A stretch of 25,543 nt of DNA from a virus (Duplodnaviria; Caudoviricetes), in IMG/VR virus record IMGVR_UViG_3300012943_000056, positions 1 to 25,543 of that record; one strand, 5' to 3'. Below the pieces are notes generated by a model. It made no database searches. It was not told where the DNA came from and saw only the letters and a list, made by a program, of their open reading frames with translations. Positions 13,397 to 25,488 of this stretch are shown here, piece after piece; position 1 is the first letter of the stretch, and each line of letters opens with the position of its first letter. The position numbers and the translations under genes were made by a program.

Positions 13397-15586
13397 ATGG
13401 CCTCATTAGTTTCAGCAGGAGTTAGCGTCACCGTAATTGACGAGAGCTTCTACATTCCAGCGGCCGCACCGACGGTGCCGCTCATCTTCGTTGCAACGAA
13501 GGCCAACAAGCTCCAGCCAGATGGACAGACGCTCGCAGCCGGCACCGCCGAGCACGGCGTGGTCCGCACGGTCACCTCCATCGGACAGTCTGTGCAGCTC
13601 TTCGGCGTGCCGCACTTCCTCACGGAAGGCGGACAGGCACTTCACGGCTCCGCGCTGAATGAGTATGGCCTCTTCGCGCTCAACCAGTTCCTCGGCATCG
13701 GCAATCTGGCGTACGTGGTTCGCGCCAACATTGACACGAGCTACGAGGCTGAAGAGTTCCTCAGCGTAGTCAAGACGAACGGCGAGTCCTCCGTGGTCGC
13801 GACAGACGTCGACTACACCGGCGTTGTCGCTAGCGACGGCGAGCTCATCGACATCGAGCTGCAGACCGGCCTCGACCTCGACGCAGCATCCGGCACCGAC
13901 GGCATCGCGACGGAGACCATCACCGTCACCTTCACGTCTTCGACCGAGTACACCGTCACTGGCTCAGTGTCCGGTGCGATCGGCAGCGGCAGCGTCGACG
14001 AGGAGTTCGAGTCCAACATCGTCAACTTCGAAGTCGCAGCCGGCACCATCCCGTTCACCGTCAGCGACACGCTCACCTTCGACATCGTGTATGCCCCGAC
14101 CACGTCGCCATCCGGCGCCGGCAAGGGTACCATCACCGACATCGAGATCGGCTCGTCCGCTCTCGTCGGCACGTACACCATCGCCATCGTGGCACCGACG
14201 GCTGGCCCACTCGTTCTCGGCGCCACCGGCCTCGATGACGCGGACCTCCCGGGTCCAGGCACCGGCTACACCAACGGCACGCACACCGACGTTGACCTCG
14301 CTCCGCTCGACTCCGGCTCCCCAGGCGCCGGCGCAAAGGCCACTGTCGTAGTGTCCGGCGGCATCGTGCAGAGCGTCAGCGTAACGGCTGGCGGCAACAA
14401 CTACGCGGTAGGCGAGACCCTCACGGTCGTCGGCCTCGGCGGCACCGGCTTCGAGATCGTGGTCACCTCGATCAACGTCTCCGCGCCGACGAACTTCAGC
14501 GTCATCGGTCCGGGCAGCCCGCTGCCATCTGGCACGATCGGCTCTGACTACACGACCTCCGACGGCTACCTGAGCTTCCTGCTCGAGAGTGGCTCGACGC
14601 AGTACGCTCCTGGCGACACGTTCACCATCGTCATCGCTGAGAAGGTTCGCTACCCGATCGTCGGCGACACCGATGCCCAGCAGCGCGTCACGATCAAGAC
14701 GGCCCTCGCCGCCGCGATCAACAGCAACACTGAGGTTCGCTCCGAGATCTACGAGTACAACCTGATCCTGGCCCCTGGCTTCCCAGAGGTCGTATCTGAG
14801 CTCGTCGCCCTCGCGACAGACGTCAACGAAGAGGCGTTCGTCATCGCTGACACGCCGATGAATCGTGACCCAGAGCAGGTCGCCACGTGGGCGATGACCT
14901 CCGGCAAGACCTCGAACCGCAACGTCGCTTACTACTACCCGCACGGCCTGGCCACGAACCTGGACGGCGCTGAGGTGGTCATCGCGGCCTCCGGCATCGC
15001 GCTCAGGACCTACGCCTACTCTGACAACGTCTCGTACGTGTGGTTCGCTCCGGCGGGCGCGCAGCGCGGCGTGGTCACCGGCGTGTCCTCCGTGGGCTAC
15101 GTCTCCGGCGACCCGATCAACCCGACGACCTACGTCCAGGCCAACCTGAACCAGGGTCAGCGCGACAACCTCTACAACCTGCCGAAGAACATCAACCCGA
15201 TCACCTACTTCCCTGGTCAGGGACTGCTGGTGTGGGGTCAGAAGACTGCGCAGGGTGTGGCGAGTGCTCTCGACCGCGTCAACGTGGTTCGCGAGGTCGG
15301 CTACATCAAGCGTCAGCTGCGCAAGGGTGCCTTCCCGTTCGTCTTCGAGCCGAATGACAAGATCACCCGCGACAACCTGAAGGCTGCGATCGATGGCTTC
15401 CTGAACCAGATCATGGCTCAGCGCGGTCTGTACGACTTCGTCACCCTGTGCGACGAGTCGAACAACACGCCGTTCGTCATCGACAACAACCAGCTCATCG
15501 CGGACGTAGCGCTCAAGCCAGTCAAGGCTGCTGAGTTCATCTACATCCCGATCCGCGTCCTGTCGACCGGCGCGACGATGCCTTGA
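13397..15586 (+). CDS. contractile tail sheath protein (T4 gp18-like)
   Basis: LVSAGVSVTVIDES, WFAPAGAQRG, WGQKT, SALDRVNV, FEPND and KPVKAAEFIYI motifs; SD AGGAG. Confidence 0.95.
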   Translation: MASLVSAGVSVTVIDESFYIPAAAPTVPLIFVATKANKLQPDGQTLAAGTAEHGVVRTVTSIGQSVQLFGVPHFLTEGGQALHGSALNEYGLFALNQFLGIGNLAYVVRANIDTSYEAEEFLSVVKTNGESSVVATDVDYTGVVASDGELIDIELQTGLDLDAASGTDGIATETITVTFTSSTEYTVTGSVSGAIGSGSVDEEFESNIVNFEVAAGTIPFTVSDTLTFDIVYAPTTSPSGAGKGTITDIEIGSSALVGTYTIAIVAPTAGPLVLGATGLDDADLPGPGTGYTNGTHTDVDLAPLDSGSPGAGAKATVVVSGGIVQSVSVTAGGNNYAVGETLTVVGLGGTGFEIVVTSINVSAPTNFSVIGPGSPLPSGTIGSDYTTSDGYLSFLLESGSTQYAPGDTFTIVIAEKVRYPIVGDTDAQQRVTIKTALAAAINSNTEVRSEIYEYNLILAPGFPEVVSELVALATDVNEEAFVIADTPMNRDPEQVATWAMTSGKTSNRNVAYYYPHGLATNLDGAEVVIAASGIALRTYAYSDNVSYVWFAPAGAQRGVVTGVSSVGYVSGDPINPTTYVQANLNQGQRDNLYNLPKNINPITYFPGQGLLVWGQKTAQGVASALDRVNVVREVGYIKRQLRKGAFPFVFEPNDKITRDNLKAAIDGFLNQIMAQRGLYDFVTLCDESNNTPFVIDNNQLIADVALKPVKAAEFIYIPIRVLSTGATMP

Positions 15587-15672: not shown

Positions 15673-16359
15673 ATGAAACTTCAACTTGAAATCCGAGCAG
15701 CCGAGGGTGGCGCCGACGCCAAGCTCTTCGTGGCTGACCTGTCTTCCGCGTACTCACGCATGGCCGGCAAATTCGGCTGAAAGTGTAACGTCGCAGAGAG
15801 CAGGCAATCCGATAAAGGCCTGCACCTAGCCGTCCTGGCATTCGAGGGCGACGATCTAAGTTCCTTACATAACGAGGTGGGTGGCCACCGGATCCAGCGC
15901 GTCCCTCCGACGGAGCGCAAGGGCCGAGTGCACACCAGCACCGTCACGGTCGCCGTGGTGGACGCGTCCTCGTCTGACTTCACAATAGCCGATCGCGACC
16001 TCGAGGTACAGTGGTACTCGGGCAGCGGGTCCGGCGGTCAGAACCGGAACAAGACGCAGAACTGCTGCCGCCTCATCCACCGCCCGACCGGCATAGTCCG
16101 GACCGCGCAGATGAGGGACAGGAGCTCGAGCTACACGGCCGCGCTGAAGGCCCTTATGGGCGACCTGAAGTCGGCGCACGAAGGGGCCAGGGCCCAGTCG
16201 ACGAACGACGCCAGGCGTGACCAGATCGGCTCTGGGATGAGGGGCGACAAGGTTCGCACGTACCAATTTCAGCGCGACTCGGTTGGCGACCATCGCTCCG
16301 GGAAGGTTGCGCGCTGCAGGGACGTCATGCGGGGCAATTTCGATCTGCTGTGGTCGTAA
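15673..16359 (+). CDS. class I peptide chain release factor, RF1-type (PxT), lacking domain 1, with in-frame UGA at codon 36
   Basis: SD AGGAGG then ATG 15673: MKLQLEIRAAEGGADAKLF..KFG*KCN.. continues in frame into GHRIQRVPPTERKGRVHTS, GSGGQNRNK and KVRTY; TGA at 15778-15780. Confidence 0.85.
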
Positions 16360-17010: not shown

Positions 17011-17039
17011 TTTACTACCCCACCCGGGTATGGCAAAAT
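17011..17039 (+). promoter_or_regulatory. sigma70-like promoter upstream of the tRNA array
   Basis: TTTACT-17 nt-(TGG)CAAAAT; same -35 as the promoter at 22394. Confidence 0.55.
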
Positions 17040-17073
17040 GCTCACACATTGTTTATTTGCGTCGAGGAAATCG

Positions 17074-17099
17074 CATAAATAAACGAGGCTGGATAAATA
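17074..17099 (+). promoter_or_regulatory. two late-promoter motifs (CATAAATA, GATAAATA)
   Basis: Same core as 7429, 13332 and 20780. Confidence 0.55.
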
Positions 17100-17137
17100 T
17101 CTGGCAGATTAGCAAACAGTTTCGAATTGAGGTTATA

Positions 17138-17242
17138 ATGTCTTCATTGAGTGCAAGAGTGACAACGATTGGTGGTTCAGGGCTCGGATATAGCCTGATA
17201 GCCGTGTCGTCTGCCGCCCTTGTCCCAGGTAGCCAGATGTAA
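17138..17242 (+). CDS. putative 34-aa leader peptide MSSLSARVTTIGGSGLGYSLIAVSSAALVPGSQM
   Basis: SD GAGG at 17129-17132; stop codon abuts attenuator-like hairpins; 25 distinct codons. Confidence 0.55.
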   Translation: MSSLSARVTTIGGSGLGYSLIAVSSAALVPGSQM

Positions 17243-17302
17243 CCCTTGAGTAAGACTCAGATCTTTTCTCAAGGGGCCTCGAAAGGGCCCCTTGAACGTT
17301 TT
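17243..17302 (+). terminator. attenuator-like antiterminator/terminator pair
   Basis: CCCTTGAG (17243-50) pairs with CTCAAGGG (17268-75), mutually exclusive with the 11-bp hairpin TCAAGGGGCCT/GGGCCCCTTGA (17269-17295) followed by ACGTTTT. Confidence 0.6.
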
Positions 17303-17506
17303 CGGACCGCAAGGTCCAAACGCTGATTAGCAGTTCAGCGAGAACAAAAGGCGGACCGTTAAGATACCAGCCGGTGGCGCACCCTGAGGCTGGAGGAATG
17401 CGAGAGTGCGACAGTATTTTTGATGAAATATGGCCCGATCGAAAGGTCGGGCCATCTCATCCGCCCGATCCAGGTGAGGCGGCTGAGTATCGACCTGGAA
17501 GAATTC

Positions 17507-17589
17507 GCCCTTGTGTCTCATGCGAATTGGTACAGCTGCTGGACTTAAAATCCGGGATCTTGTGGGTTCGAGTCCCACCAAGGGCACCA
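17507..17589 (+). tRNA. tRNA-Leu(TAA), short variable loop, extra nt before the D arm
   Basis: Acceptor GCCCTTG/CAAGGGC, loop CT-TAA-AA, TTCGAGT, ACCA. Confidence 0.85.
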
Positions 17590-17611
17590 GACACAAGGAC
17601 ATCGTTTCATC

Positions 17612-17698
17612 GGGAGTGTAGACCGTAATGGTTTCGAGACAGTCTGTAAAACTGTTGCCCATAGGGCCAACTTGGTTCAATTCCAGGCATTCCCACCA
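17612..17698 (+). tRNA. tRNA-Tyr(GTA)
   Basis: ACAGT-CT GTA AA-ACTGT, long V arm, TTCAATT, ACCA. Confidence 0.92.
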
Positions 17699-17721
17699 CT
17701 TTCATCTCATCATTTATCACT

Positions 17722-17800
17722 GGCCCCATACCAGACGAGCCTTCTAATCTCGAGCACTGTAATTGGATCGATGCAGGTTCGAGTCCTGCTGGGGTCGCCA
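17722..17800 (+). tRNA. atypical tRNA-Arg(TCT)-like gene lacking a canonical D arm
   Basis: Acceptor GGCCCCA/TGGGGTC, loop CT-TCT-AA, canonical T arm, GCCA. Confidence 0.65.
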
Positions 17801-17803
17801 AGT

Positions 17804-17890
17804 TTGACTCCTAGTTTAAGGAGAACACACGGGAGTACCCGGCGTCCGACAGGACTTGGTGGTGCGGCGGTCATATCGTCGCGGAGTCAA
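17804..17890 (+). ncRNA. tRNA-like RNA without anticodon loop or CCA
   Basis: Closing stem TTGACTCC/GGAGTCAA; D-like TAGTTTAAGGAGAAC; hairpins CGGG-AGTA-CCCG and GTCC-GACA-GGAC; T-like GCGGC..GTCGC. Confidence 0.5.
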
Positions 17891-18023
17891 TTGAACCTTG
17901 TGGCCCATGAATGCACTTCGCAAGCCACCGCTACGCGTCACGGGTTGATGCGAGGTCTCCGACGCACCAAAGCACGGGGTTCGGGATCTTCCACAAATTC
18001 CTGGCGGAGTGCATCCGCCACCT

Positions 18024-18116
18024 ATGCTGAGGGTCCCACTCACCCGCTCAGAAGAGCTAAGTGGATAAATGCTGAGGGTCCCACTCACCCGCCCAGACAG
18101 GGCTAAGTGGATAAAT
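18024..18116 (+). repeat. tandem 45/46-nt structured repeat (2 copies)
   Basis: ATGCTGAGGGTCCCACTCACCC-GCTC agaa GAGC / GCCC agaca GGGC-TAAGTGGATAA. Confidence 0.9.
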
Positions 18117-18118
18117 TC

Positions 18119-18193
18119 GGGGAATGGGCAGGGCACCCAGGAAATCCTTGCAAGATTTCAGCTTGATCGGTTCGAGTCCGATATTCTCCACCA
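18119..18193 (+). tRNA. tRNA-Ala(TGC), reduced D arm
   Basis: GGGGAAT/ATTCTCC with G3:U70, loop CT-TGC-AA, ACCA. Confidence 0.85.
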
Positions 18194-18202
18194 ACTTGAT
18201 AT

Positions 18203-18280
18203 AGCGGGATCGAACAACGGTAGGTCACTGTCCTCATAAGGCAGACATGGTGTGGTGTTCAATTCCCACTCCCGCTACCA
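18203..18280 (+). tRNA. tRNA with CAT anticodon (Met-type), bulged T stem
   Basis: AGCGGGA/TCCCGCT, CT-CAT-AA, ACCA. Confidence 0.8.
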
Positions 18281-18293
18281 CCTTTTAGTTTAT

Positions 18294-18378
18294 GCCCTCG
18301 TGGTGAAATTGGTAGACACGCCAGCTTGAGGTGCTGGAGCGTAACAGTGTGGAGGTTCGAGTCCTCTCGAGGGCACCA
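18294..18378 (+). tRNA. tRNA-Leu(GAG)
   Basis: CCAGC-TT GAG GT-GCTGG, long V arm, ACCA. Confidence 0.93.
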
Positions 18379-18713
18379 ATTCGAAAGCAAAGGGGTCGTG
18401 ACTCATTGTCCGCAAGGATGAAGAAGCCAGCGATGGTGGAGACACTGAACCCGACGCCCCAACGTTATAAACCTTCGCAGCCGCCGGTGGCCGGGTGCAA
18501 TTGAAGAGACGTTGCGGACGCTACCAAGAACATGACCAGTACGCTGCAGTATAACCTGCTGAAGCCGGGGCTCACTCCGGACGTGGGAATCTGGTCGAAA
18601 GGGTTTACCCGTTCCTATGTGAATACGGGAAGATTACTCCAACGTACGGACCTGCAACATCTTATGATGCCGGCGTTGGGAAGAGAGGAGGTTGCAGTCC
18701 TCTTGAGAGATTC

Positions 18714-18788
18714 GCCCGGTTAGCTCAGCGGTAGAGCGGAATCCTTACACGGTTACGGTCGGGGGTTCGATCCCCTCACTGGGCACCA
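18714..18788 (+). tRNA. tRNA-Val(TAC)
   Basis: Canonical D and T arms, CT-TAC-AC, ACCA. Confidence 0.92.
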
Positions 18789-18791
18789 ATA

Positions 18792-19390
18792 TCTGACTGC
18801 TGTGGTGTACAGCCAAGCTGAAAACCGCCACAGAGGATAAGAGACCCTGCGGGTTGCAAACTGCGCGGTCGACAGTCGGACCAAATAAGAAGCGTCGATC
18901 TTCCTACCCGAAAGGGAGGTGACCCACACAACTCGTGGGTCTGGCAAATGCGGCGCACAATTCGTTTTGCAGTGATGTAGCTTATGGCCGGCGCGTTCTA
19001 AATCGCGTTAAGTGTTGCGTCGGCTCCTTCGATGGAAGATACGCGATTCGCCTGTCACTGCGATTTTAAGCACCATGGCTGTGCTTCGTGGAGTTAGCGG
19101 CCCCATGAAGAAGATGAGGATGGTGCAGCCGCAAGAACCTAACTCAACTCGTACCCGATCAGGGCACCCCATCAGCCGGAAGGCACAACATGTGGCCCGA
19201 GATCAGCCCAGGCATGAATGGGTGGTGCGATAGACGTTGGCTCCGGATGTGGGGTCAGCGCGACGAGAATATAAGCGACACCCCGCCGTGATACCTGCGT
19301 AAGGGATAGCCCGCCCACGGGTGCGAAATAAATGCAAAAGTCGGTAGCTCCGACAGGGACCCTCGCCGTGCGGCGACGAGGATTTCCCGC
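18792..19390 (+). ncRNA. cluster of structured non-coding RNA modules
   Basis: Successive closed domains (18792-18880, 18892-18956, 18969-19061, 19070-19145) separated by A/T-rich linkers; GNRA loops; no credible ORF. Confidence 0.55.
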
Positions 19391-19394
19391 CTTT

Positions 19395-19471
19395 CGGAAT
19401 GTAGCTCAGCCTGGTAGAGCGCTTGCTTCGGGAGCAAGAAGTCGTCGGTTCAATTCCGGCCTTTCCGACCA
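19395..19471 (+). tRNA. tRNA-Pro(CGG)
   Basis: CTTGC-TT CGG GA-GCAAG, ACCA. Confidence 0.93.
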
Positions 19472-19485
19472 AATTCTGTTTCATT

Positions 19486-19562
19486 CGGGGTGTAGCTCAG
19501 CCTGGTAGAGCGCTTGCTTTGGGAGCAAGATGTCGCAAGTTCAATTCCTGTCACCCCGACCA
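19486..19562 (+). tRNA. tRNA-Pro(TGG)
   Basis: CTTGC-TT TGG GA-GCAAG, ACCA. Confidence 0.93.
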
Positions 19563-19736
19563 TTTTGGTTCGCTGCCACCGTAAAAGGCAGCAAAGTTTT
19601 GTTCGGTTGGAGGGTCTGGAAAACTTATCCGACAGAGTAGCAGTCTGATGCAGCCTTACCTTAGTGGGTTCGAGAGATCATCCTAGTTGCATTCCTGATG
19701 GTTAAAAGATGCGCGCTGGCCGAACAGATTCATTTC

Positions 19737-19810
19737 GCGGGTGTAGTTTAATGGTAAAACTCCTGCCTTCCAAGCAGACCTCGAGGGTTCGATTCCCTCT
19801 ACCCGCTCCA
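19737..19810 (+). tRNA. tRNA-Gly(TCC)
   Basis: CT-TCC-AA loop, U73 discriminator, CCA. Confidence 0.93.
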
Positions 19811-19817
19811 ATTTCAT

Positions 19818-19893
19818 GCGGTATTAGTTCAGTTGGTAGAACACAACTTTGCCAAAGTTGAGGTCACCGGTTCGAGCCCGGTATACCGCTCCA
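19818..19893 (+). tRNA. tRNA-Gly(GCC)
   Basis: CAACT-TT GCC AA-AGTTG, TCCA. Confidence 0.93.
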
Positions 19894-20063
19894 TCGCGAC
19901 GTGATTGGCTGGTCACGTAAATCGGCAATTGCCTCCCCTCACCCGGGTACGTATTGCCTTGGCTCCTGGTCGTGCAGGGTTACTGGCACGTGCACCTGGT
20001 ATAGACAGGTTGGGTTAGCGGGATACCCGAGATACAAGCCGCTAGCTATTCAAGAATTGTGGG

Positions 20064-20180
20064 CTCACTCACGCCAGGACAAACGGGCGGTCGTCGTGTT
20101 GTCGTAATAGGGGAACTGGTATACCCATCCTCGCAAGAGGTAGCATGTGCGGGTTCGAGTCCCGTCGACATTGGAGTGAG
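20064..20180 (+). ncRNA. tRNA mimic with a GNRA hairpin replacing the anticodon arm, embedded in a larger stem
   Basis: D-like GGGAACTGGTATACCC; CCTC-GCAA-GAGG; canonical GCGGG-TTCGAGT-CCCGT; TGTCG/CGACA; outer CTCACTC/GAGTGAG; no CCA. Confidence 0.65.
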
Positions 20181-20266
20181 AACGCAGGACGGATGGAAAT
20201 ACGAGCTGTGTCCGCGGTAGCCGGCCACACTGTCCAGCTCTTCCATCCATGCGCTACCGCCTATTC

Positions 20267-20343
20267 GCCCAAGTGATGGAATTGGTATACGTGCCAGCCT
20301 CAAAATCTGGATCCTGTGGGTTCGAGTCCCACCTTGGGCACCA
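20267..20343 (+). tRNA. tRNA-Leu(CAA), short variable loop
   Basis: GCCCAAG/CTTGGGC, CT-CAA-AA, ACCA. Confidence 0.9.
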
Positions 20344-20440
20344 AGACGTTTCGGCAACTGGAAAGGTACGTCGCGCGGAGATGGCGCGGAAGGCACCAGC
20401 CACTCGTGAACCGTTAGCGAGGTCGAGACTGCATTTCATC

Positions 20441-20536
20441 GCTCCTTAGCACGGGTGTGCGGCTGGGCCTTATAGACCCGGGAGAGCTGCCAGATTAGCG
20501 GCAACGGCGAGGGTTCGAGTCCCCGAGGGAGCACCA
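20441..20536 (+). tRNA. atypical tRNA with TAT anticodon (reads AUA), long V arm, tiny D arm
   Basis: GCTCCTT/AGGGAGC, loop CT-TAT-AG, V arm GCTGCC..GGCAAC, bulged T stem, ACCA. Confidence 0.65.
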
Positions 20537-20558
20537 ACAATAACAACAAAGGATACCC

Positions 20559-20768
20559 ATGTCGCCGCAAGACTTCTGCTATTGGCTCCAGGGCGTGCTC
20601 GAGGTTACCAAGCCGGAGCAGCTCGACAAGGAGCAGCTCGCCATGGTTCGCGAGCACCTGGACCTGGTCTTCACCAAGGTCACGTCCGTCCCGAAGGTTG
20701 AACCGGTGATTAGTCGCAGACTCTGCGCCTCCGGCACTGCCTTCGACAGCACCACCAAGATCTGCTGA
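20559..20768 (+). CDS. hypothetical phage protein (69 aa)
   Basis: SD AAGGA; QDFCYWLQG..IREHL-type pattern; strong GC3 codon usage. Confidence 0.85.
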   Translation: MSPQDFCYWLQGVLEVTKPEQLDKEQLAMVREHLDLVFTKVTSVPKVEPVISRRLCASGTAFDSTTKIC

Positions 20769-20779
20769 TCCGACCGGCC

Positions 20780-20787
20780 CATAAATA
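20780..20787 (+). promoter_or_regulatory. late-promoter motif (CATAAATA)
   Basis: Same core, 5 nt before ATG 20793. Confidence 0.5.
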
Positions 20788-20792
20788 CTCTC

Positions 20793-21263
20793 ATGAGGAG
20801 AGTAGTCGGTCTGGTAGCTTCGGTACTTCTCCACCTGATCTTCCTGGTGGCCCTACTCATTCGTCCCGACCTTACCGGCGCCGGCAAGCCAGCGATGGCA
20901 GATCTCGAGGAGAACGTCATCCACATATCCATGATGGGTGACATGATCAAGCCGAAGGAGACTGGCGACGGAGAGTCGACCAATGACGACGAGGACCGCT
21001 GTGCCAATGGCACGAAGAAGTACAACGGCGTCGGGTTCATCTACAGCCGGGAGACCGGCATCATATCCGACGTGCCAGAGACGACGCCGGCCTACAAGGC
21101 CGGCATCCGAGAGTACGACGTCCTCATGAATCCGACCGACGGCGACCTGCCGCCCGGCCCGGCGACGATCGTCATCATGCGCTACGGCGTGTCGATGTCG
21201 TTCGTGATAGAGACGACCAAGATATGCTACGACACCGAGAAGACCGCGGGTCCTAGCGAGTAA
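20793..21263 (+). CDS. membrane-anchored PDZ-domain protein
   Basis: N-terminal TM; YNGVGF..ISDVPETTPAYKAGIREYDVL is a PDZ signature. Confidence 0.75.
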   Translation: MRRVVGLVASVLLHLIFLVALLIRPDLTGAGKPAMADLEENVIHISMMGDMIKPKETGDGESTNDDEDRCANGTKKYNGVGFIYSRETGIISDVPETTPAYKAGIREYDVLMNPTDGDLPPGPATIVIMRYGVSMSFVIETTKICYDTEKTAGPSE

Positions 21264-21418
21264 ATGCGAGGGGTGTTGGACGTTCGTCTACTGATGTAAC
21301 GTGCCTCCGGTTAGTGGCCGAGAGGGCTTCAGCGGCTGCCAACATCTTTGTTCCTGTGGTGGATTCACTATCCTCCGTCGCGCCACATGCATGGAAAATG
21401 CGACACCTATTCCCAAAT

Positions 21419-21501
21419 GCCGGGTTGGCTCAGTGGCGACAGCAGCTGTTTTGTAAGCAGCCATACAAACACCGGGAGTTCGAATCTCTCACTCGGCACC
21501 A
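21419..21501 (+). tRNA. tRNA-Thr(TGT) with 12-nt unpaired variable loop
   Basis: GCTGT-TT TGT AA-GCAGC, ACCA. Confidence 0.88.
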
Positions 21502-21529
21502 GATTTTTTGCAACAGAGAAACATACCAT

Positions 21530-21640
21530 ATGAATATTTTAGTGTACCTTACCTTGGCCATCTTCATTGTCGCACCCGTCCTCATGTTCTACACATGGGG
21601 CAAGCAGGAGCTGCGCACACGGTTCAAGTTGAACATCTGA
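21530..21640 (+). CDS. small single-TM protein (36 aa)
   Basis: MNILVYLTLAIFIVAPVLMFYTWGKQELRTRFKLNI fills the gap between two tRNAs. Confidence 0.55.
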   Translation: MNILVYLTLAIFIVAPVLMFYTWGKQELRTRFKLNI

Positions 21641-21648
21641 TTTTCTTC

Positions 21649-21723
21649 GCGCCCTTAGCTCAGCGGTAGAGCGCTTCCTTGACATGGAATAGGCCGCAGG
21701 TTCGATCCCTGCAGGGCGCACCA
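21649..21723 (+). tRNA. tRNA-Val(GAC)
   Basis: TT-GAC-AT loop, canonical arms, ACCA. Confidence 0.93.
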
Positions 21724-21735
21724 TTTTCGTTTTGT

Positions 21736-21891
21736 GCGGTTGTGGCGCAGTGGATGACGGGCCCGCAATAAGCGGGATGGATCTGCCCGAGAACGGCGTG
21801 AGCCTCGCGATGGTCTGCAGAAACACGCGTGGCGATATCCGACCGGGGTACGGCAGTGTAGGTTGGGTTCGATTCCCAACCGACCGCACCA
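21736..21891 (+). ncRNA. 156-nt tRNA-like RNA with a large structured insert replacing the anticodon arm
   Basis: Acceptor GCGGTTG/CGACCGC plus ACCA; D-like GCGCAGTGGATGACG; T arm GTTGGG-TTCGATT-CCCAAC. Confidence 0.75.
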
Positions 21892-21926
21892 GTTTTGAAG
21901 TGGCGTATAATGGCCACACGATTTGA

Positions 21927-22002
21927 CGCAGAGTAGAGCAGCTGGAAGCTCGTGTGGCTCATAACCACGAGGTCGGGGGTTCAAATCCCTCCTCTGCTAC
22001 CA
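21927..22002 (+). tRNA. tRNA-Met(CAT), probable initiator
   Basis: C1:U72 mismatch, GAGC/GCTC D stem, CT-CAT-AA, ACCA. Confidence 0.88.
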
Positions 22003-22064
22003 TTTTGGCTGTCTAAGAGGGTTCCTTAAAACATTTAACGGCAAATATTACTCTCCGACGCCAT

Positions 22065-22093
22065 TTGACTTCCGACCCCTCGGGTGCTAACGT
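22065..22093 (+). promoter_or_regulatory. possible sigma70-like promoter for tmRNA
   Basis: TTGACT-17 nt-TAACGT. Confidence 0.4.
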
Positions 22094-22099
22094 CCGTTG

Positions 22100-22385
22100 G
22101 GCGGATGATGAGTGTACAATGTTCGACTGAATGAGTTTTGGACGGGGCTCTCAGATGCCCCCACCTCCACCAATTAAGCGCAGTCATTTGCGCGAGTGCG
22201 GGGGTGACAGGATTCGACAGGGCTAGCTAGGAAGAAACGCACTCCGACAGGCGATCGTCGTAAATGAAGCGAAACAAGTAAACGCTGCAAATGACGCAGA
22301 ATTCGAAATGGCCCTCGCGGCCTAATTCGAATGCGGACACCCGGTCCGTATAACCCAACGGTAGGGGGTGGGGCAACCCACCCCT
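22100..22385 (+). ncRNA. ssrA: circularly permuted two-piece tmRNA (outer ends approximate)
   Basis: Acceptor piece GACGGGGC..GCCCC-CACCTCC-A-CCA ends at 22172; coding piece starts GGGGGTGACAGGATTCGAC at 22200 (G3:U70); tag AANDAEFEMALAA* at 22284-22325. Confidence 0.9.
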
Positions 22386-22393
22386 GTCTAAGA

Positions 22394-22422
22394 TTTACTT
22401 GGGTCGGCGCATCGGTTATAAT
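22394..22422 (+). promoter_or_regulatory. sigma70-like promoter
   Basis: TTTACT-17 nt-TATAAT. Confidence 0.7.
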
Positions 22423-22508
22423 GGCACATGGCGCGCGACTTACTCACTGGACGATACTTTAGGCCAGCAGCGAAATCCGGTCATCAGATAACAAAGGACA
22501 ACGACTCA

Positions 22509-23528
22509 ATGTCAATATTCCATGCGGAGACGCGATTCATCCTTCACGATCACGAGGCAGCCGAGTGGCAGCTCAGTCGGAAGAAGGGTTCGTACGTCGC
22601 TCTCTACCTCGAGCTTGAGGACCTCAACAAGTCGTTCGCGTTCCTCTGCGACGCGCTCAAGCTGACGGTGCATGCTGCCCAGGCCGAGTCCAAGTTCAAC
22701 AGCAACGTGTTCGCGTACGACTCCGAGATGATGTTCATCTGCGGCGAGAACAACGTCCTCGAGGGCTGGGTCCACCAGGACCGCGCCGAAGAGGTCAATG
22801 CGATCGTCAGCAAGTTCAAGACGGCCGCGTCGTCTTCCAAGGTCAAGTGGTTCTTCAAGGACCCGTCCGGCCGCATCACGTCGTCCGACCTGAACCTCGA
22901 GGGATCGAACCCGCTCAACGAGTTCTACCCCTGGATGCACCAGGACATCGACTCGTTCGCCAAGGCCTTCCTGAAGTCCAAGGCCAACGTCATGCTGCTG
23001 CTCGGTCCTCCGGGCACCGGCAAGACGAGCTTCATCCGCCGGCTGATCCGCGCGATGAACTTCGAGACCTGGATCACGTACGATCCGGATGTGCAGCAGT
23101 CCGAGTCCTTCTTCATGCGCTTCGCGAAGCCGACGGCGGAAGACCGCTACGGCGACGACAGCGACGACACCAGCCCGCGTCTCCTCGTCATGGAGGACGC
23201 CGACACGATGCTCGAGGCACGCGGCGACGGCAACAAGCTGATGACCCGGATCCTCAACCTGGCGGACGGCCTCGTGTCGCTGCCGGATCGCAAGATCATC
23301 TTCAGCACGAACCTGCCGGGACTGACGAGCATCGACGACGCGCTCCTGCGCCCGGGCCGCTGCTTCGCGGCGATCAGGTTCAGGCACCTGACGAAGGCCG
23401 AGGCGTCCGTAGCCTGCCAGGCGATCGGTCGCGAGTACACCGGCACGTCGGACAAGGTTACGCTGGCCGAGGCCATCAACGGCGACGACCACAATCAATT
23501 AGGGGTGATGAAGATCGGATTCACCTAA
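22509..23528 (+). CDS. AAA+ ATPase (single classic AAA domain)
   Basis: Walker A GPPGTGKT, Walker B LVMEDAD, second region of homology STN..IDDALLRPGR; SD AAGGA favours ATG 22509 over 22428. Confidence 0.9.
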   Translation: MSIFHAETRFILHDHEAAEWQLSRKKGSYVALYLELEDLNKSFAFLCDALKLTVHAAQAESKFNSNVFAYDSEMMFICGENNVLEGWVHQDRAEEVNAIVSKFKTAASSSKVKWFFKDPSGRITSSDLNLEGSNPLNEFYPWMHQDIDSFAKAFLKSKANVMLLLGPPGTGKTSFIRRLIRAMNFETWITYDPDVQQSESFFMRFAKPTAEDRYGDDSDDTSPRLLVMEDADTMLEARGDGNKLMTRILNLADGLVSLPDRKIIFSTNLPGLTSIDDALLRPGRCFAAIRFRHLTKAEASVACQAIGREYTGTSDKVTLAEAINGDDHNQLGVMKIGFT

Positions 23529-23745
23529 GGATGCGACGCGAGTAAAGCCTGGTGCTCCCACGGGAGCTGGCAAGAGATCCAGGACAAGCATGATCCATCT
23601 CGCCGACATGAACAAGTCGTAAATGGTTCCGCGTGGTAGCCGCGTAAGAACTCCCTAATTTTGAATTCCTGTTTGGCCGTGCCTGGATAAAAACTCAAAC
23701 GGCCATGCGTTGACGACGGGCGTACGCCTCGAGACGCATTTACAC

Positions 23746-23820
23746 GGGACCATAGCTCAGTGGTAGAGCAAAGTCTTGATAAGGCTTAGGTCGTAGGTTC
23801 GAGCCCTACTGGTCCCACCA
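23746..23820 (+). tRNA. tRNA-Ile(GAT)
   Basis: AAGTC-TT GAT AA-GGCTT, ACCA. Confidence 0.93.
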
Positions 23821-23956
23821 GATGTGAAGCGCGAAGTACAAGCGCGACGCTAGGCGGCTGTAGTATGACTACGTGAAGGTCGCCGGACGCAGGTAAGGCA
23901 AGTCAACGGAGAATGGGAAGCGTCATCGCTGATACCTCACCGGCCTGCAACTATTC

Positions 23957-24039
23957 GCCCGATTGGTGGAATTGGTAGACACGATGGTTTTAGATGCCAT
24001 TGCGCAAGCGTGAGGGTTCGAGTCCCTCGTCGGGCACCA
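23957..24039 (+). tRNA. tRNA-Leu(TAG)
   Basis: ATGGT-TT TAG AT-GCCAT, V arm, ACCA. Confidence 0.93.
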
Positions 24040-24043
24040 ATGT

Positions 24044-24116
24044 TTTGGCATAGTTTATGAAGGTATAAAACGCGAGGATACCTCGAGAAGTCGGGATCAT
24101 GGTCGCGACTGCCAAA
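24044..24116 (+). ncRNA. tRNA-like RNA with a 3-nt loop in the anticodon position, no CCA
   Basis: TTTGGCA/TGCCAAA; TA-GTTT..AAAC D arm; CGAGG-ATA-CCTCG; GTCG..CGAC T-like arm. Confidence 0.55.
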
Positions 24117-24131
24117 TCAAATTCGATTTTC

Positions 24132-24210
24132 GCCCCTGTGGTCAAACTGGTAAAGGCGCTCGGCTCAGAACTGAGAGATTTTGTGAGTTCGAATCTCACC
24201 TGGGGCACCA
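24132..24210 (+). tRNA. tRNA-Leu(CAG), short variable loop
   Basis: CTCGG-CT CAG AA-CTGAG, ACCA. Confidence 0.9.
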
Positions 24211-24213
24211 AGT

Positions 24214-24379
24214 TTGTGGAAGTAAGCTTAGAAGCAGCTACCTTTAATGAGTGACCCGCTGAAACGGTCTGTCGTGCATGACACTCCAAAGTAGGACGGA
24301 TTGTAGCCACGACGATCGGCGGCGGCCGCCGCGTTCGATCGCACGATGCTAGCGTCTTCGGCGTAACAGCACACCACAA
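24214..24379 (+). ncRNA. 23S rRNA L11-binding domain (H43/H44) mimic with ~107-nt insertion
   Basis: GCTTAGAAGCAGC..TTTAATGAGT and GCGTAACAGCACAC match 23S nt ~1055-1104; closed by TTGTGG/CCACAA. Confidence 0.75.
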
Positions 24380-24389
24380 TTCATTTCAT

Positions 24390-24460
24390 GGCATGGTCCT
24401 GATACCGCTCGTATCCACATGCGGGTTCAGATGGCGCGGATACCGCCTACAGTGCCGCCA
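24390..24460 (+). ncRNA. 71-nt CCA-terminated RNA with complementary (kissing) loops
   Basis: GGCAT/GTGCC stem plus GCCA; loops GTATCC (24411-16) and GGATAC (24438-43). Confidence 0.55.
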
Positions 24461-24464
24461 ATTT

Positions 24465-24556
24465 GGAGACGTGGGAGAGCCTGGTTTAATCCGCAACCCT
24501 GGAAAGGTTGTTGGCCCGCAAGGGCCACGTGAGTTCGAATCTCACCGTCTCCGCCA
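24465..24556 (+). tRNA. tRNA-Ser(GGA)
   Basis: CAACC-CT GGA AA-GGTTG, long V arm, GCCA. Confidence 0.93.
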
Positions 24557-24586
24557 TTTACAAGTCGGGCATCGATGTGATATAAT
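24557..24586 (+). promoter_or_regulatory. sigma70-like promoter
   Basis: TTTACA-18 nt-TATAAT directly after the tRNA CCA. Confidence 0.6.
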
Positions 24587-24610
24587 CTTCTCACTTATTG
24601 GGAGGATGAC

Positions 24611-25207
24611 ATGCACGATACCCCTTTGTTCTGGGCCACTATGGCATTAGTCGGCGCGACCTTGATTCTTGCGGGTGTTGCTGCCTGGGGCCTGATCTAT
24701 ACACCGAAGCAGGCTGAATCTGATCGTCAGAACGAAAGATGGATGCGAGCACTTAGTGTTATCTCCTTCTATAACTTTGGTTTTGGATCAAAGGTTCCAT
24801 TGGAGTGGTCATCAGAGATTCACAACCTAGCCTTGTTACGGGATGTCAACATCAATCAGCTCAAGGATGCACTGCTCAGGCGCATTGCCGAGATGCCAAC
24901 TCAGGGACTTGCTCCTGTCATAGGGGCTCATGAAAATCTAATACGGGCATTGGCTAACAGATTGGCTGTCGATCCGATTCCATTCTTACATGTCTATCAA
25001 CCGCAGCATCTCGCGGATCGTGAAAAGCAAATTGACGCGGCCCTTGCGGCTATACCCTCTATGAGTCTTGGCGCCAGAGCTTCATTGGCTATGCTAGGTC
25101 TTGTGAAGAAGGTGCAGGCCAATGAAGATGGCTTTGGTGAACTGGTTGAGGCTGGGTTAGACGAAGTGAAAAAACTCGATGAATTTATTGCGGCTACGAA
25201 AAAATGA
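24611..25207 (+). CDS. AT-richer membrane-anchored hypothetical protein (198 aa)
   Basis: SD GGAGG; N-terminal TM; many A/T-ending codons. Confidence 0.7.
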   Translation: MHDTPLFWATMALVGATLILAGVAAWGLIYTPKQAESDRQNERWMRALSVISFYNFGFGSKVPLEWSSEIHNLALLRDVNINQLKDALLRRIAEMPTQGLAPVIGAHENLIRALANRLAVDPIPFLHVYQPQHLADREKQIDAALAAIPSMSLGARASLAMLGLVKKVQANEDGFGELVEAGLDEVKKLDEFIAATKK

Positions 25208-25395
25208 CAGAGCCCAGCTACTGCTGCAACACCTGCTACGAGAAGTCTGTAGCGCGTGACATGTTCGCCGACATGTTCGGCCGCCGCATGATCCTGTGCC
25301 CGACGTGCGGCAACAAGCGTTGCCCGAAGGCGACGGACCACGGCAACACCTGCACGAACAGCAACGAGCCAGGACAGGTCGGCTCGAATTACTAA
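25204..25395 (+). CDS. small Cys-rich (Zn-binding) protein (63 aa)
   Basis: CCNTC..CPTCGNKRCPKATDH..C; ATGA overlap with upstream gene. Confidence 0.8.
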   Translation: MTEPSYCCNTCYEKSVARDMFADMFGRRMILCPTCGNKRCPKATDHGNTCTNSNEPGQVGSNY

Positions 25396-25398
25396 TTT

Positions 25399-25488
25399 GG
25401 AGACGTGGGGGAGCGGTTTATCCCAGAACTTTGCTAAAGTTCCGGTCCCGAGAGGGACCCGTGAGTTCGAATCTCACCGTCTCCGCCA
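25399..25488 (+). tRNA. tRNA-Ser(GCT)
   Basis: GAACT-TT GCT AA-AGTTC, long V arm, GCCA. Confidence 0.93.

Follow-up and report, generated by a model that had tools for sequence, protein, structure and literature searches.

The question raised by this locus is how a phage might decide when to express a large set of tRNA genes. The window, by which we mean the whole stretch of 25,543 nucleotides, is a 25.5-kb virus record that comparison of the tail-sheath gene (13397-15586) identifies as a fragment of a RsoM2USA-like jumbo phage; among GenBank phages the nearest are Ralstonia phage RsoM2USA and the XacN1 group, and the sheath C-terminal domain shares 62-78% identity with uncultured relatives. 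A tRNA array, which we call type A, occupies positions 17506-25488 (plus strand), where the contig end cuts it, and comprises tRNAs for Leu, Tyr, Ala, Met, Val, Pro, Gly, Thr, Ile and Ser. ARAGORN finds 18 tRNAs by default and 20 at a relaxed threshold, with genes interspersed and a tmRNA inside the array (22056-22389, plus strand). The first tRNA, a low-scoring Leu-TAA at about 17506-17589, is missed by default ARAGORN and recovered at the relaxed threshold (cmscan 24.4 bits, below the cut-off); it lies about 210 nt past a leader hairpin, close to the 200 nt given by the first-pass annotation, which had proposed a codon-sampling attenuator ahead of the array. From the comparison presented here we propose a translation-coupled attenuator that senses tRNA supply and acts by transcription termination, with a probability of about 0.74; that the leader is a ribosome-controlled switch of some kind is very probable.

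Ribosome-rescue functions stand beside the tRNAs, namely an RF-1-domain protein encoded upstream (15877-16359) and the tmRNA. Two tRNA-like genes were also observed within the array, one (17722-17797) without a D arm and with a long extra arm and the anticodon TCT, missed by default ARAGORN and scored at 32.5 bits by cmscan, and the other (20441-20537) with the anticodon TAT, a long variable arm and 85% identity in the relative G001. The conserved non-tRNA stretches 18833-18962 and 23826-23956 show 87-90% identity to G001 or G005 and have no Rfam match; part of the latter is present in other phages too. Two tandem 45-nt repeats right before tRNA-Ala (18024-18115), likewise without an Rfam match, are pseudoknot-like (GGGT/ACCC crossing CCACT/AGTGG); the two copies are distinguished by a compensatory pair in the inner hairpin, and the same two changes appear in a contig from run X4. 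Directly 5' of the first tRNA another pseudoknot is possible (17460-17499; CCGCC/GGCGG crossing CCAGGT/ACCTGG), in which positions 17476 and 17492 are both A instead of G in the X2 contig. Among the contigs compared, the leader is covered by run X1 only, from which the record may itself derive, and the 254-nt X2 contig spans 17322-17575 with four differences. No RNA dataset with this DNA was listed in the public runs. A BLAST search of 17030-17500 against GenBank phages gave chance matches only, and a search with the neighbouring 105-aa protein gave no relatives. A first reading of the region as a large known non-coding RNA, for which we took RNase P, ROOL, GOLLD, SRP and 6S to be the candidates, was abandoned as it found no Rfam support.

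The candidate leader ORF begins with an ATG at 17138 behind the Shine-Dalgarno sequence GAGGT (17129-17133, plus strand), and runs for 34 codons (17138-17242, plus strand) to a TAA at 17240-17242; its translation is predicted. The GAGG, the 34-codon ORF and the segment directly behind its stop, all named in the first-pass annotation, were read at 17129-17132, 17138-17242 and 17243-17250. An ORF of such size, led by a Shine-Dalgarno sequence and ending at such a distance, occurred in 1.3% of 300 shuffles of the window. The frame stays open for 36 codons further upstream (70 codons in all, from an ATG at 17030 without a Shine-Dalgarno sequence and within the promoter), and in this extension 16 of 35 codons match the array vs 31 of 33 in the leader. 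The leader peptide matches no Pfam family.

Segment 2, CCCTTGAG TAAG (17243-17254, plus strand, with CCCTTGAG at 17243-17250), lies right behind the stop codon and would be the 5' strand of an antiterminator. Segment 3 (17263-17279, plus strand), in which CTCAAGGG at 17268-17275 is the complement of segment 2, can pair either with segment 2 through 17263-17275 or with segment 4 through 17269-17279. Segment 4 (17285-17295), together with its weak tail ACGTTTTC (17285-17303 in all, plus strand), would complete the putative terminator 3:4, a hairpin at 17269-17295 of ten Watson-Crick pairs and a closing U-G with an energy of -20.2 kcal/mol. Both reading and folding bear out the earlier claim that the pairing of segment 2 excludes this 11-bp hairpin: the RNA cut before segment 4 adopts the 2:3 fold, and the RNA with segment 4 adopts the 3:4 fold. 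The 2:3 duplex reaches -15.6 kcal/mol against a shuffle mean of -9.8 (p=0.010, 500 shuffles), and the region folds strongly (z -4.9). A second copy of CCCTTG within the ORF (17217-17222, plus strand) can pair with segment 3 too when folding is computed with a ribosome modelled at the stop. Taken from the window only, these statistics are suggestive of an attenuator, short of decisive.

Complete or large relatives were collected through the sheath gene, their tRNAs were located and the DNA ahead of each array was read. Leaders are present in nine records (the window, G001, G002, G003, G005, G006, G007, L160 and RsoM2USA). These phages carry two large tRNA arrays, each with its own leader: type A arrays hold mostly Ser, Leu, Ala, Gly, Pro, Tyr, Val, Thr and Ile tRNAs, and type B arrays His, Glu, Lys, Asn, Gln, Asp, Arg, Cys, Trp and Phe, plus Thr, Val, Ile and Met. 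All 14 large-array heads that were read in these records (the L160 array is cut after its first tRNA, and the G007 A head lies off the contig) carry a 25-45-codon ORF that ends 19-33 nt ahead of a strong hairpin; because hairpins were sought around the stop, this spacing is no independent test. The architecture that the first-pass annotation had advised looking for ahead of related arrays, an ORF with alternative hairpins and covariation, is thus found at every one of these heads, and segments 2 and 3 co-vary. The ORF geometry with its Shine-Dalgarno sequence arises in 0-2.7% of shuffles per leader among 13 leaders; the other leaders have purine-rich sites ahead, those of RsoM2USA being weak or distant. 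Leaders of type A are 43-72% alike at the DNA level, those of type B 47-85%. The cultured phage RsoM2USA has both leaders (112124-112047 and 87361-87248 of its record, minus strand), and directly behind its leader A, before the first tRNA, sits an unannotated 40-aa ArfA homologue (L132 39845-39964, minus strand; record 111844-111963; Pfam E 7.6e-6). In G003 the A leader stands some 920 nt ahead of the first tRNA, promoter-like sites separating the two, and it came to light only in the control scan described below; the interval (L123, reverse strand, about 1770-2400) holds three tandem promoter-like repeats, and also TGCTCTTTAACAA, which we take to be boxA-like.

Seven small tRNA blocks, of which five have CTA anticodons and two belong to RsoM2USA, showed no matching leader, nor did XacN1, Xoo-sp13, RAS14, G008 and G009; the 2:3 energy was computed for part of these. 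Separate tRNA pairs with the anticodon CTA (amber suppressors), again without a matching leader, occur in L118, L120, L124, L386-L387, L390 and L133. The motif WQ..CQR..VRFE is kept in type B peptides (type A peptides share little sequence), and a pattern for type B peptides retrieved five loci, all known or identical to G006; tblastn with one type B leader gave only matches of E=6. The hairpin sequence was discarded as a relative-finder after 26 matches to unrelated terminators. A distal conserved RNA pattern led to G008-G010 and two fragments, the array heads of G008 and G009 being without a leader.

A sigma70-like promoter TTTACT-N17-CAAAAT lies at 17011-17039 (plus strand), and the leader transcript likely starts near 17046. 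A TTTAC-N17 promoter-like site is found upstream of 11 of the 13 leaders, 66-158 nt before the start codon, and the motif occurs twice more within the window. Two ATAAATA boxes, at 17075 and 17093 (17075-17099, plus strand), presumably resemble T4-type late promoters, and ATAAAT(A) recurs 30-102 nt before the start codon, also in 11 of the 13; these two kinds of site place transcription upstream of the ORF. The first-pass annotation had cautioned that a TATAAT overlaps the ATG, and it does, at 17134-17139, in the window only; conserved in none of the other leaders, it was rejected as the main promoter. A long hairpin just after the predicted start site (17051-17084) buries the first ATAAATA box, and similar hairpins exist in some relatives. 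Inside the array, promoter-like sites at 20781, 22394 and 24557 may free the distal tRNAs from leader control and limit its reach to the first part of the array.

The alternative helices are maintained across the leaders. In 13 leaders the best 2:3 duplex overlaps the 5' arm of the hairpin, with energies between -10.7 and -20.9 kcal/mol. Eleven of these duplexes are better than shuffles at p<=0.03, G002 A (p=0.11) and RsoM2USA A (p=0.14) falling short of significance; as the phages are related, such p-values overstate independence. An anchored covariation matrix favours the own pair by construction and was replaced by an unanchored version. With the latter, segment 3 compared with the upstream regions of all leaders pairs best with its own in 11 of 13, and the true assignment of segments 2 to segments 3 is the best of 720 permutations for type A and of 5040 for type B. 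As a control we took 150 hairpins with T-rich tails from 709 kb of fetched phage DNA, partly overlapping, nine of which were known leaders. Among the other 141, nine have a leader-like ORF, and none of these nine reaches a 2:3 energy of -10.5 within the interval scored, at a threshold chosen after the leaders had been seen; one of them is the true G003 A leader, with a deeper segment 3 (-19.7). The control is a modest one, because about 1.5 cases were expected from the two separate rates. Its detector recovered nine of the 13 leaders then known, missing those of the window, G006 A, RsoM2USA A and L160.

The codons of the leaders follow the content of the arrays. In the window 31 of the 33 codons after Met specify array amino acids, compared with 62% in the proteins of the window (P about 4e-5), and all ten array amino acids occur, scattered over the 33 codons. 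Only Gln and Arg fall outside; Arg is encoded by AGA, which may be compared with the TCT anticodon of the tRNA-like gene at 17722-17797. In five two-array genomes, amino acids served by a single array are more frequent in their own leader in 76 of 79 cells, with two ties and one cell trailing, and, counting codons before segment 2, same-array codons outnumber the others by 199 to 13. In RsoM2USA the tRNAs for His, Trp, Cys and Glu lie in array A and those for Ala and Gly in array B, and its leaders follow: before segment 2, leader A has seven codons for the first four amino acids and none for Ala or Gly, and leader B none and seven. In G003 the sole departure from the common layout is a tRNA-Cys in array A, and the Cys codon is in leader A only. 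Composition bias is excluded because these two rearrangements moved leader codons together with tRNAs. The swaps need at least two events on any tree; the sheath tree leaves the placement of RsoM2USA, and with it the direction of the swaps, open. RsoM2USA leader B has no Thr or Pro codons although its array has such tRNAs.

The match extends to isoacceptors for threonine. Type A arrays have Thr-TGT and their leaders use ACA in 10 of 14 Thr codons, and type B arrays have Thr-GGT/CGT and their leaders use ACA in 2 of 24 (p=1e-4 with kinship ignored and RsoM2USA left out), without a general bias for A at the third position. The corresponding tests for Val (p=0.62) and Ile (p=0.07) were not significant. 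Over-dispersed use of synonymous codons was not supported: the window leader has 25 distinct codons of 33 (p=0.44), and diversity exceeds unbiased choice in only two of the 13 leaders, not in the other 11. The term codon-sampling in the first-pass annotation is therefore apt for amino acids (ten of ten) and for Thr isoacceptors, and not for synonymous diversity.

How ribosome position would set the fold was explored with a footprint model. The free, untranslated RNA forms 2:3 in all 13 leaders (P 0.77-1.0), as does RNA whose ribosome stands within the first two thirds of the leader; once the footprint extends to segment 2 the helix is lost. Since a 1:2 helix is absent, read-through is expected of untranslated RNA. 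The mutually exclusive 2:3 and 3:4 helices, for which the first-pass annotation had invoked trp/his attenuators, hold and covary; the 1:2 helix of that class is lacking. For six of the seven type B leaders the end of segment 2 falls inside the ORF, 12-23 nt short of the stop, and in the model a ribosome at the stop does not prevent 2:3 (P 0.6-1.0); in type B a block of 2:3 would need a ribosome crossing segment 2, or sterics outside the model. For the window this model, which ignores sterics and timing, gives P(2:3)=0.56 at the stop owing to the second CCCTTG. The switch must be kinetic, since 3:4 wins at equilibrium even with a stalled ribosome.

By a terminator tail score, seven of 13 leaders are positive and six negative, including the window (-15), and hairpin 17269-17295 is absent from the list produced by a terminator scan of the window. 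The weak U-tract noted as a caveat in the first-pass annotation is real, the window tail being among the weakest of the leaders. Good U-tracts exist at the homologous place in RsoM2USA B, G002 A, G002 B and G003 B, and in the weak tails (Y)GTTT is conserved some 5 nt after the CCC of the stem.

Behind the hairpin, in 10 of the 14 leaders, lies a conserved RNA element of the form AACAAA..GGACCG..stem..GARYGCGA (17343-17403 in the window, plus strand). Its 5-bp stem shows changes on both sides at all five pairs, and a 3-bp helix accompanies it; the four leaders without the element keep the switch. A model of the element matched nine times in 54 records, each time at an array head and within a training sequence; the element has no Rfam family and no match in the genome-contig collection. 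Two relaxed patterns gave mostly chance matches: a tRNA lies within 600 nt in 13 of the 242 motif matches listed, and among these there is one new true locus (L160), the rest being self, duplicates or chance. In minimum-free-energy folds the tail of the window hairpin can pair with GAGAAC, closing two small hairpins (17298-17345, plus strand), as could happen after read-through; a similar pairing is found in about half of ten relatives and is absent from the consensus fold of the alignment.

We propose the following mechanism. Host RNA polymerase would start near 17046, with a ribosome following through the 34-codon leader, which calls for every array amino acid and almost no other. The genome paper of RsoM2USA reports no annotated RNA polymerase, and this makes the host enzyme with coupled translation plausible. 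With fast decoding, the ribosome arriving at the stop would cover segment 2, 3:4 would pair and transcription would stop or be damped near 17300. With a ribosome lagging at any leader codon, or with none loaded, 2:3 would form before segment 4 is made and polymerase would enter the tRNA block. Without a 1:2 helix a delay anywhere in the leader would count, and a single leader could poll about ten tRNA families. Thus the leader switch probably makes tRNAs mainly when ribosomes read the matching codons slowly. Depletion of tRNA would be the likelier signal, because extra tRNA cures a loss of tRNA and not amino-acid starvation. The ORF, the alternative helices, their covariation and the match of codons to arrays are supported by comparison, from which we infer translation of the ORF, termination at 3:4, its timing and tRNA shortage as the natural signal.

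Other explanations share part of this evidence. It is unlikely that the same 2:3/3:4 switch has another output, such as a Nus- or Rho-assisted stop or pause, folding of the downstream RNA, or processing or stability of the precursor. The weak tails with their conserved (Y)GTTT, the possible pairing between the tail and the AACAA side of the following element, and the presence of that covarying element in 10 of 14 leaders would suit such an output; they are offset by the four good U-tracts, by the persistence of the switch where the element is missing and by the absence of the tail pairing from the consensus fold. We regard it as improbable that the leader gauges failing translation in general, be it from ribosome damage, antibiotics, host shut-off or uncoupling, with the codon match as a by-product. 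The formation of 2:3 in untranslated RNA that has no 1:2 helix (P 0.77-1.0), the tmRNA in the array and the ArfA behind one leader would fit it, but a by-product cannot account for codons that follow tRNAs between arrays, nor for the Thr isoacceptor split. General translation failure may act as a second input beside the codon signal.

Very improbable, in our judgement, is a peptide that is itself the product, or a chance frame in a structured non-coding leader with a constitutive hairpin. The conserved type B peptide motif, the strong regional fold (z -4.9) and the extension of the window frame to 70 codons can be cited in its favour. However, type A peptides have little sequence in common, the composition of the RsoM2USA peptides changed along with the arrays, segments 2 and 3 co-vary, the ORF geometry is rare in shuffles of each leader (0-2.7%), and no Pfam family is matched. 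The attenuator sensing tRNA supply is thus the reading we retain. A broader and somewhat doubtful version of it is a two-channel monitor of the whole genetic code, in which the leader of each operon would sample its own codons down to isoacceptors, the phage would refill only that half of the tRNA pool which the host had cut or allowed to decay, and the separate RNA behind the hairpin would make polymerase processive through the long non-coding array.

The leaders trpL, hisL and thrL and the multivalent leader of ilvGMEDA are leader-peptide attenuators of amino-acid operons, and E. coli pheL/pheA is described as a leader-peptide transcription attenuator in the accessible text of PMC3082878. 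The phage leaders resemble this class in their short ORF, the exclusive 2:3 and 3:4 helices, the position of the ribosome as a switch and codons matched to a supply. In contrast to the pheL/trpL type, which gates genes for amino-acid synthesis or synthetases and reads runs of one to three amino acids, they would gate tRNAs, tmRNA, ArfA and unknown genes and poll about 10-14 amino acids once to several times; furthermore, they lack the 1:2 pause or protector helix of the trp/his/phe type, have a weak U-tract and share the genetic code between two leaders. They are set apart from that class as a variant because control-codon runs, 1:2 helix and biosynthetic targets are all missing. In E. coli the pheM leader of pheST is an attenuator set by the level of charged tRNA; as the phage leader would, it controls part of the translation machinery, and it differs in serving one amino acid and a synthetase operon on the chromosome. 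T-box riboswitches bind tRNA directly, with no ORF and one specifier codon, and share with the proposed phage switch a terminator/antiterminator choice set by tRNA status. The T-box model gave no Rfam match in the window at gathering or E<=10, nor in four relatives at E<=0.05, and the phage leader is not a T-box.

A spare tRNA array switched on under translational stress is known from the trn operon of Anabaena, according to the accessible text of PMC8421152, in which the strings 'leader', 'terminator' and 'attenuat' do not occur; by its title, PMC10272220 identifies TrcR as the repressor of that operon. The Anabaena operon is thus under repressor control, and the phage arrays have a leader with alternative helices. 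The put RNA of HK022 comprises two stems and binds the beta' zinc domain, as given in the accessible part of PMC9378689. It resembles the element at 17343-17403 in being a small conserved structured RNA early in a far-running phage transcript, and differs in having two stems where the element has one covarying stem and a 3-bp helix, the two being compared by description only; our guess, by analogy, is that the element antiterminates as put does.

No paper on attenuators of tRNA arrays was found in open PMC and bioRxiv text, and the genome paper of RsoM2USA covers ORFs above 50 aa only and leaves the leaders unmentioned. The tests of codon swaps between arrays, the cultured example RsoM2USA and the conserved RNA behind the hairpin are new here. 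Why phages carry tRNAs has long been an open question, with a supplement to codon usage on one side and the replacement of host tRNAs destroyed in infection on the other. A switch opening only on slow reading of specific codons favours the replacement of tRNAs on demand. If true, ribosome-mediated attenuation extends from amino-acid synthesis to tRNA genes, and a design that has no 1:2 helix and reads ten or more amino acids might be used to sense tRNA depletion. The question of the role of phage tRNAs thereby becomes testable with a 250-nt reporter.
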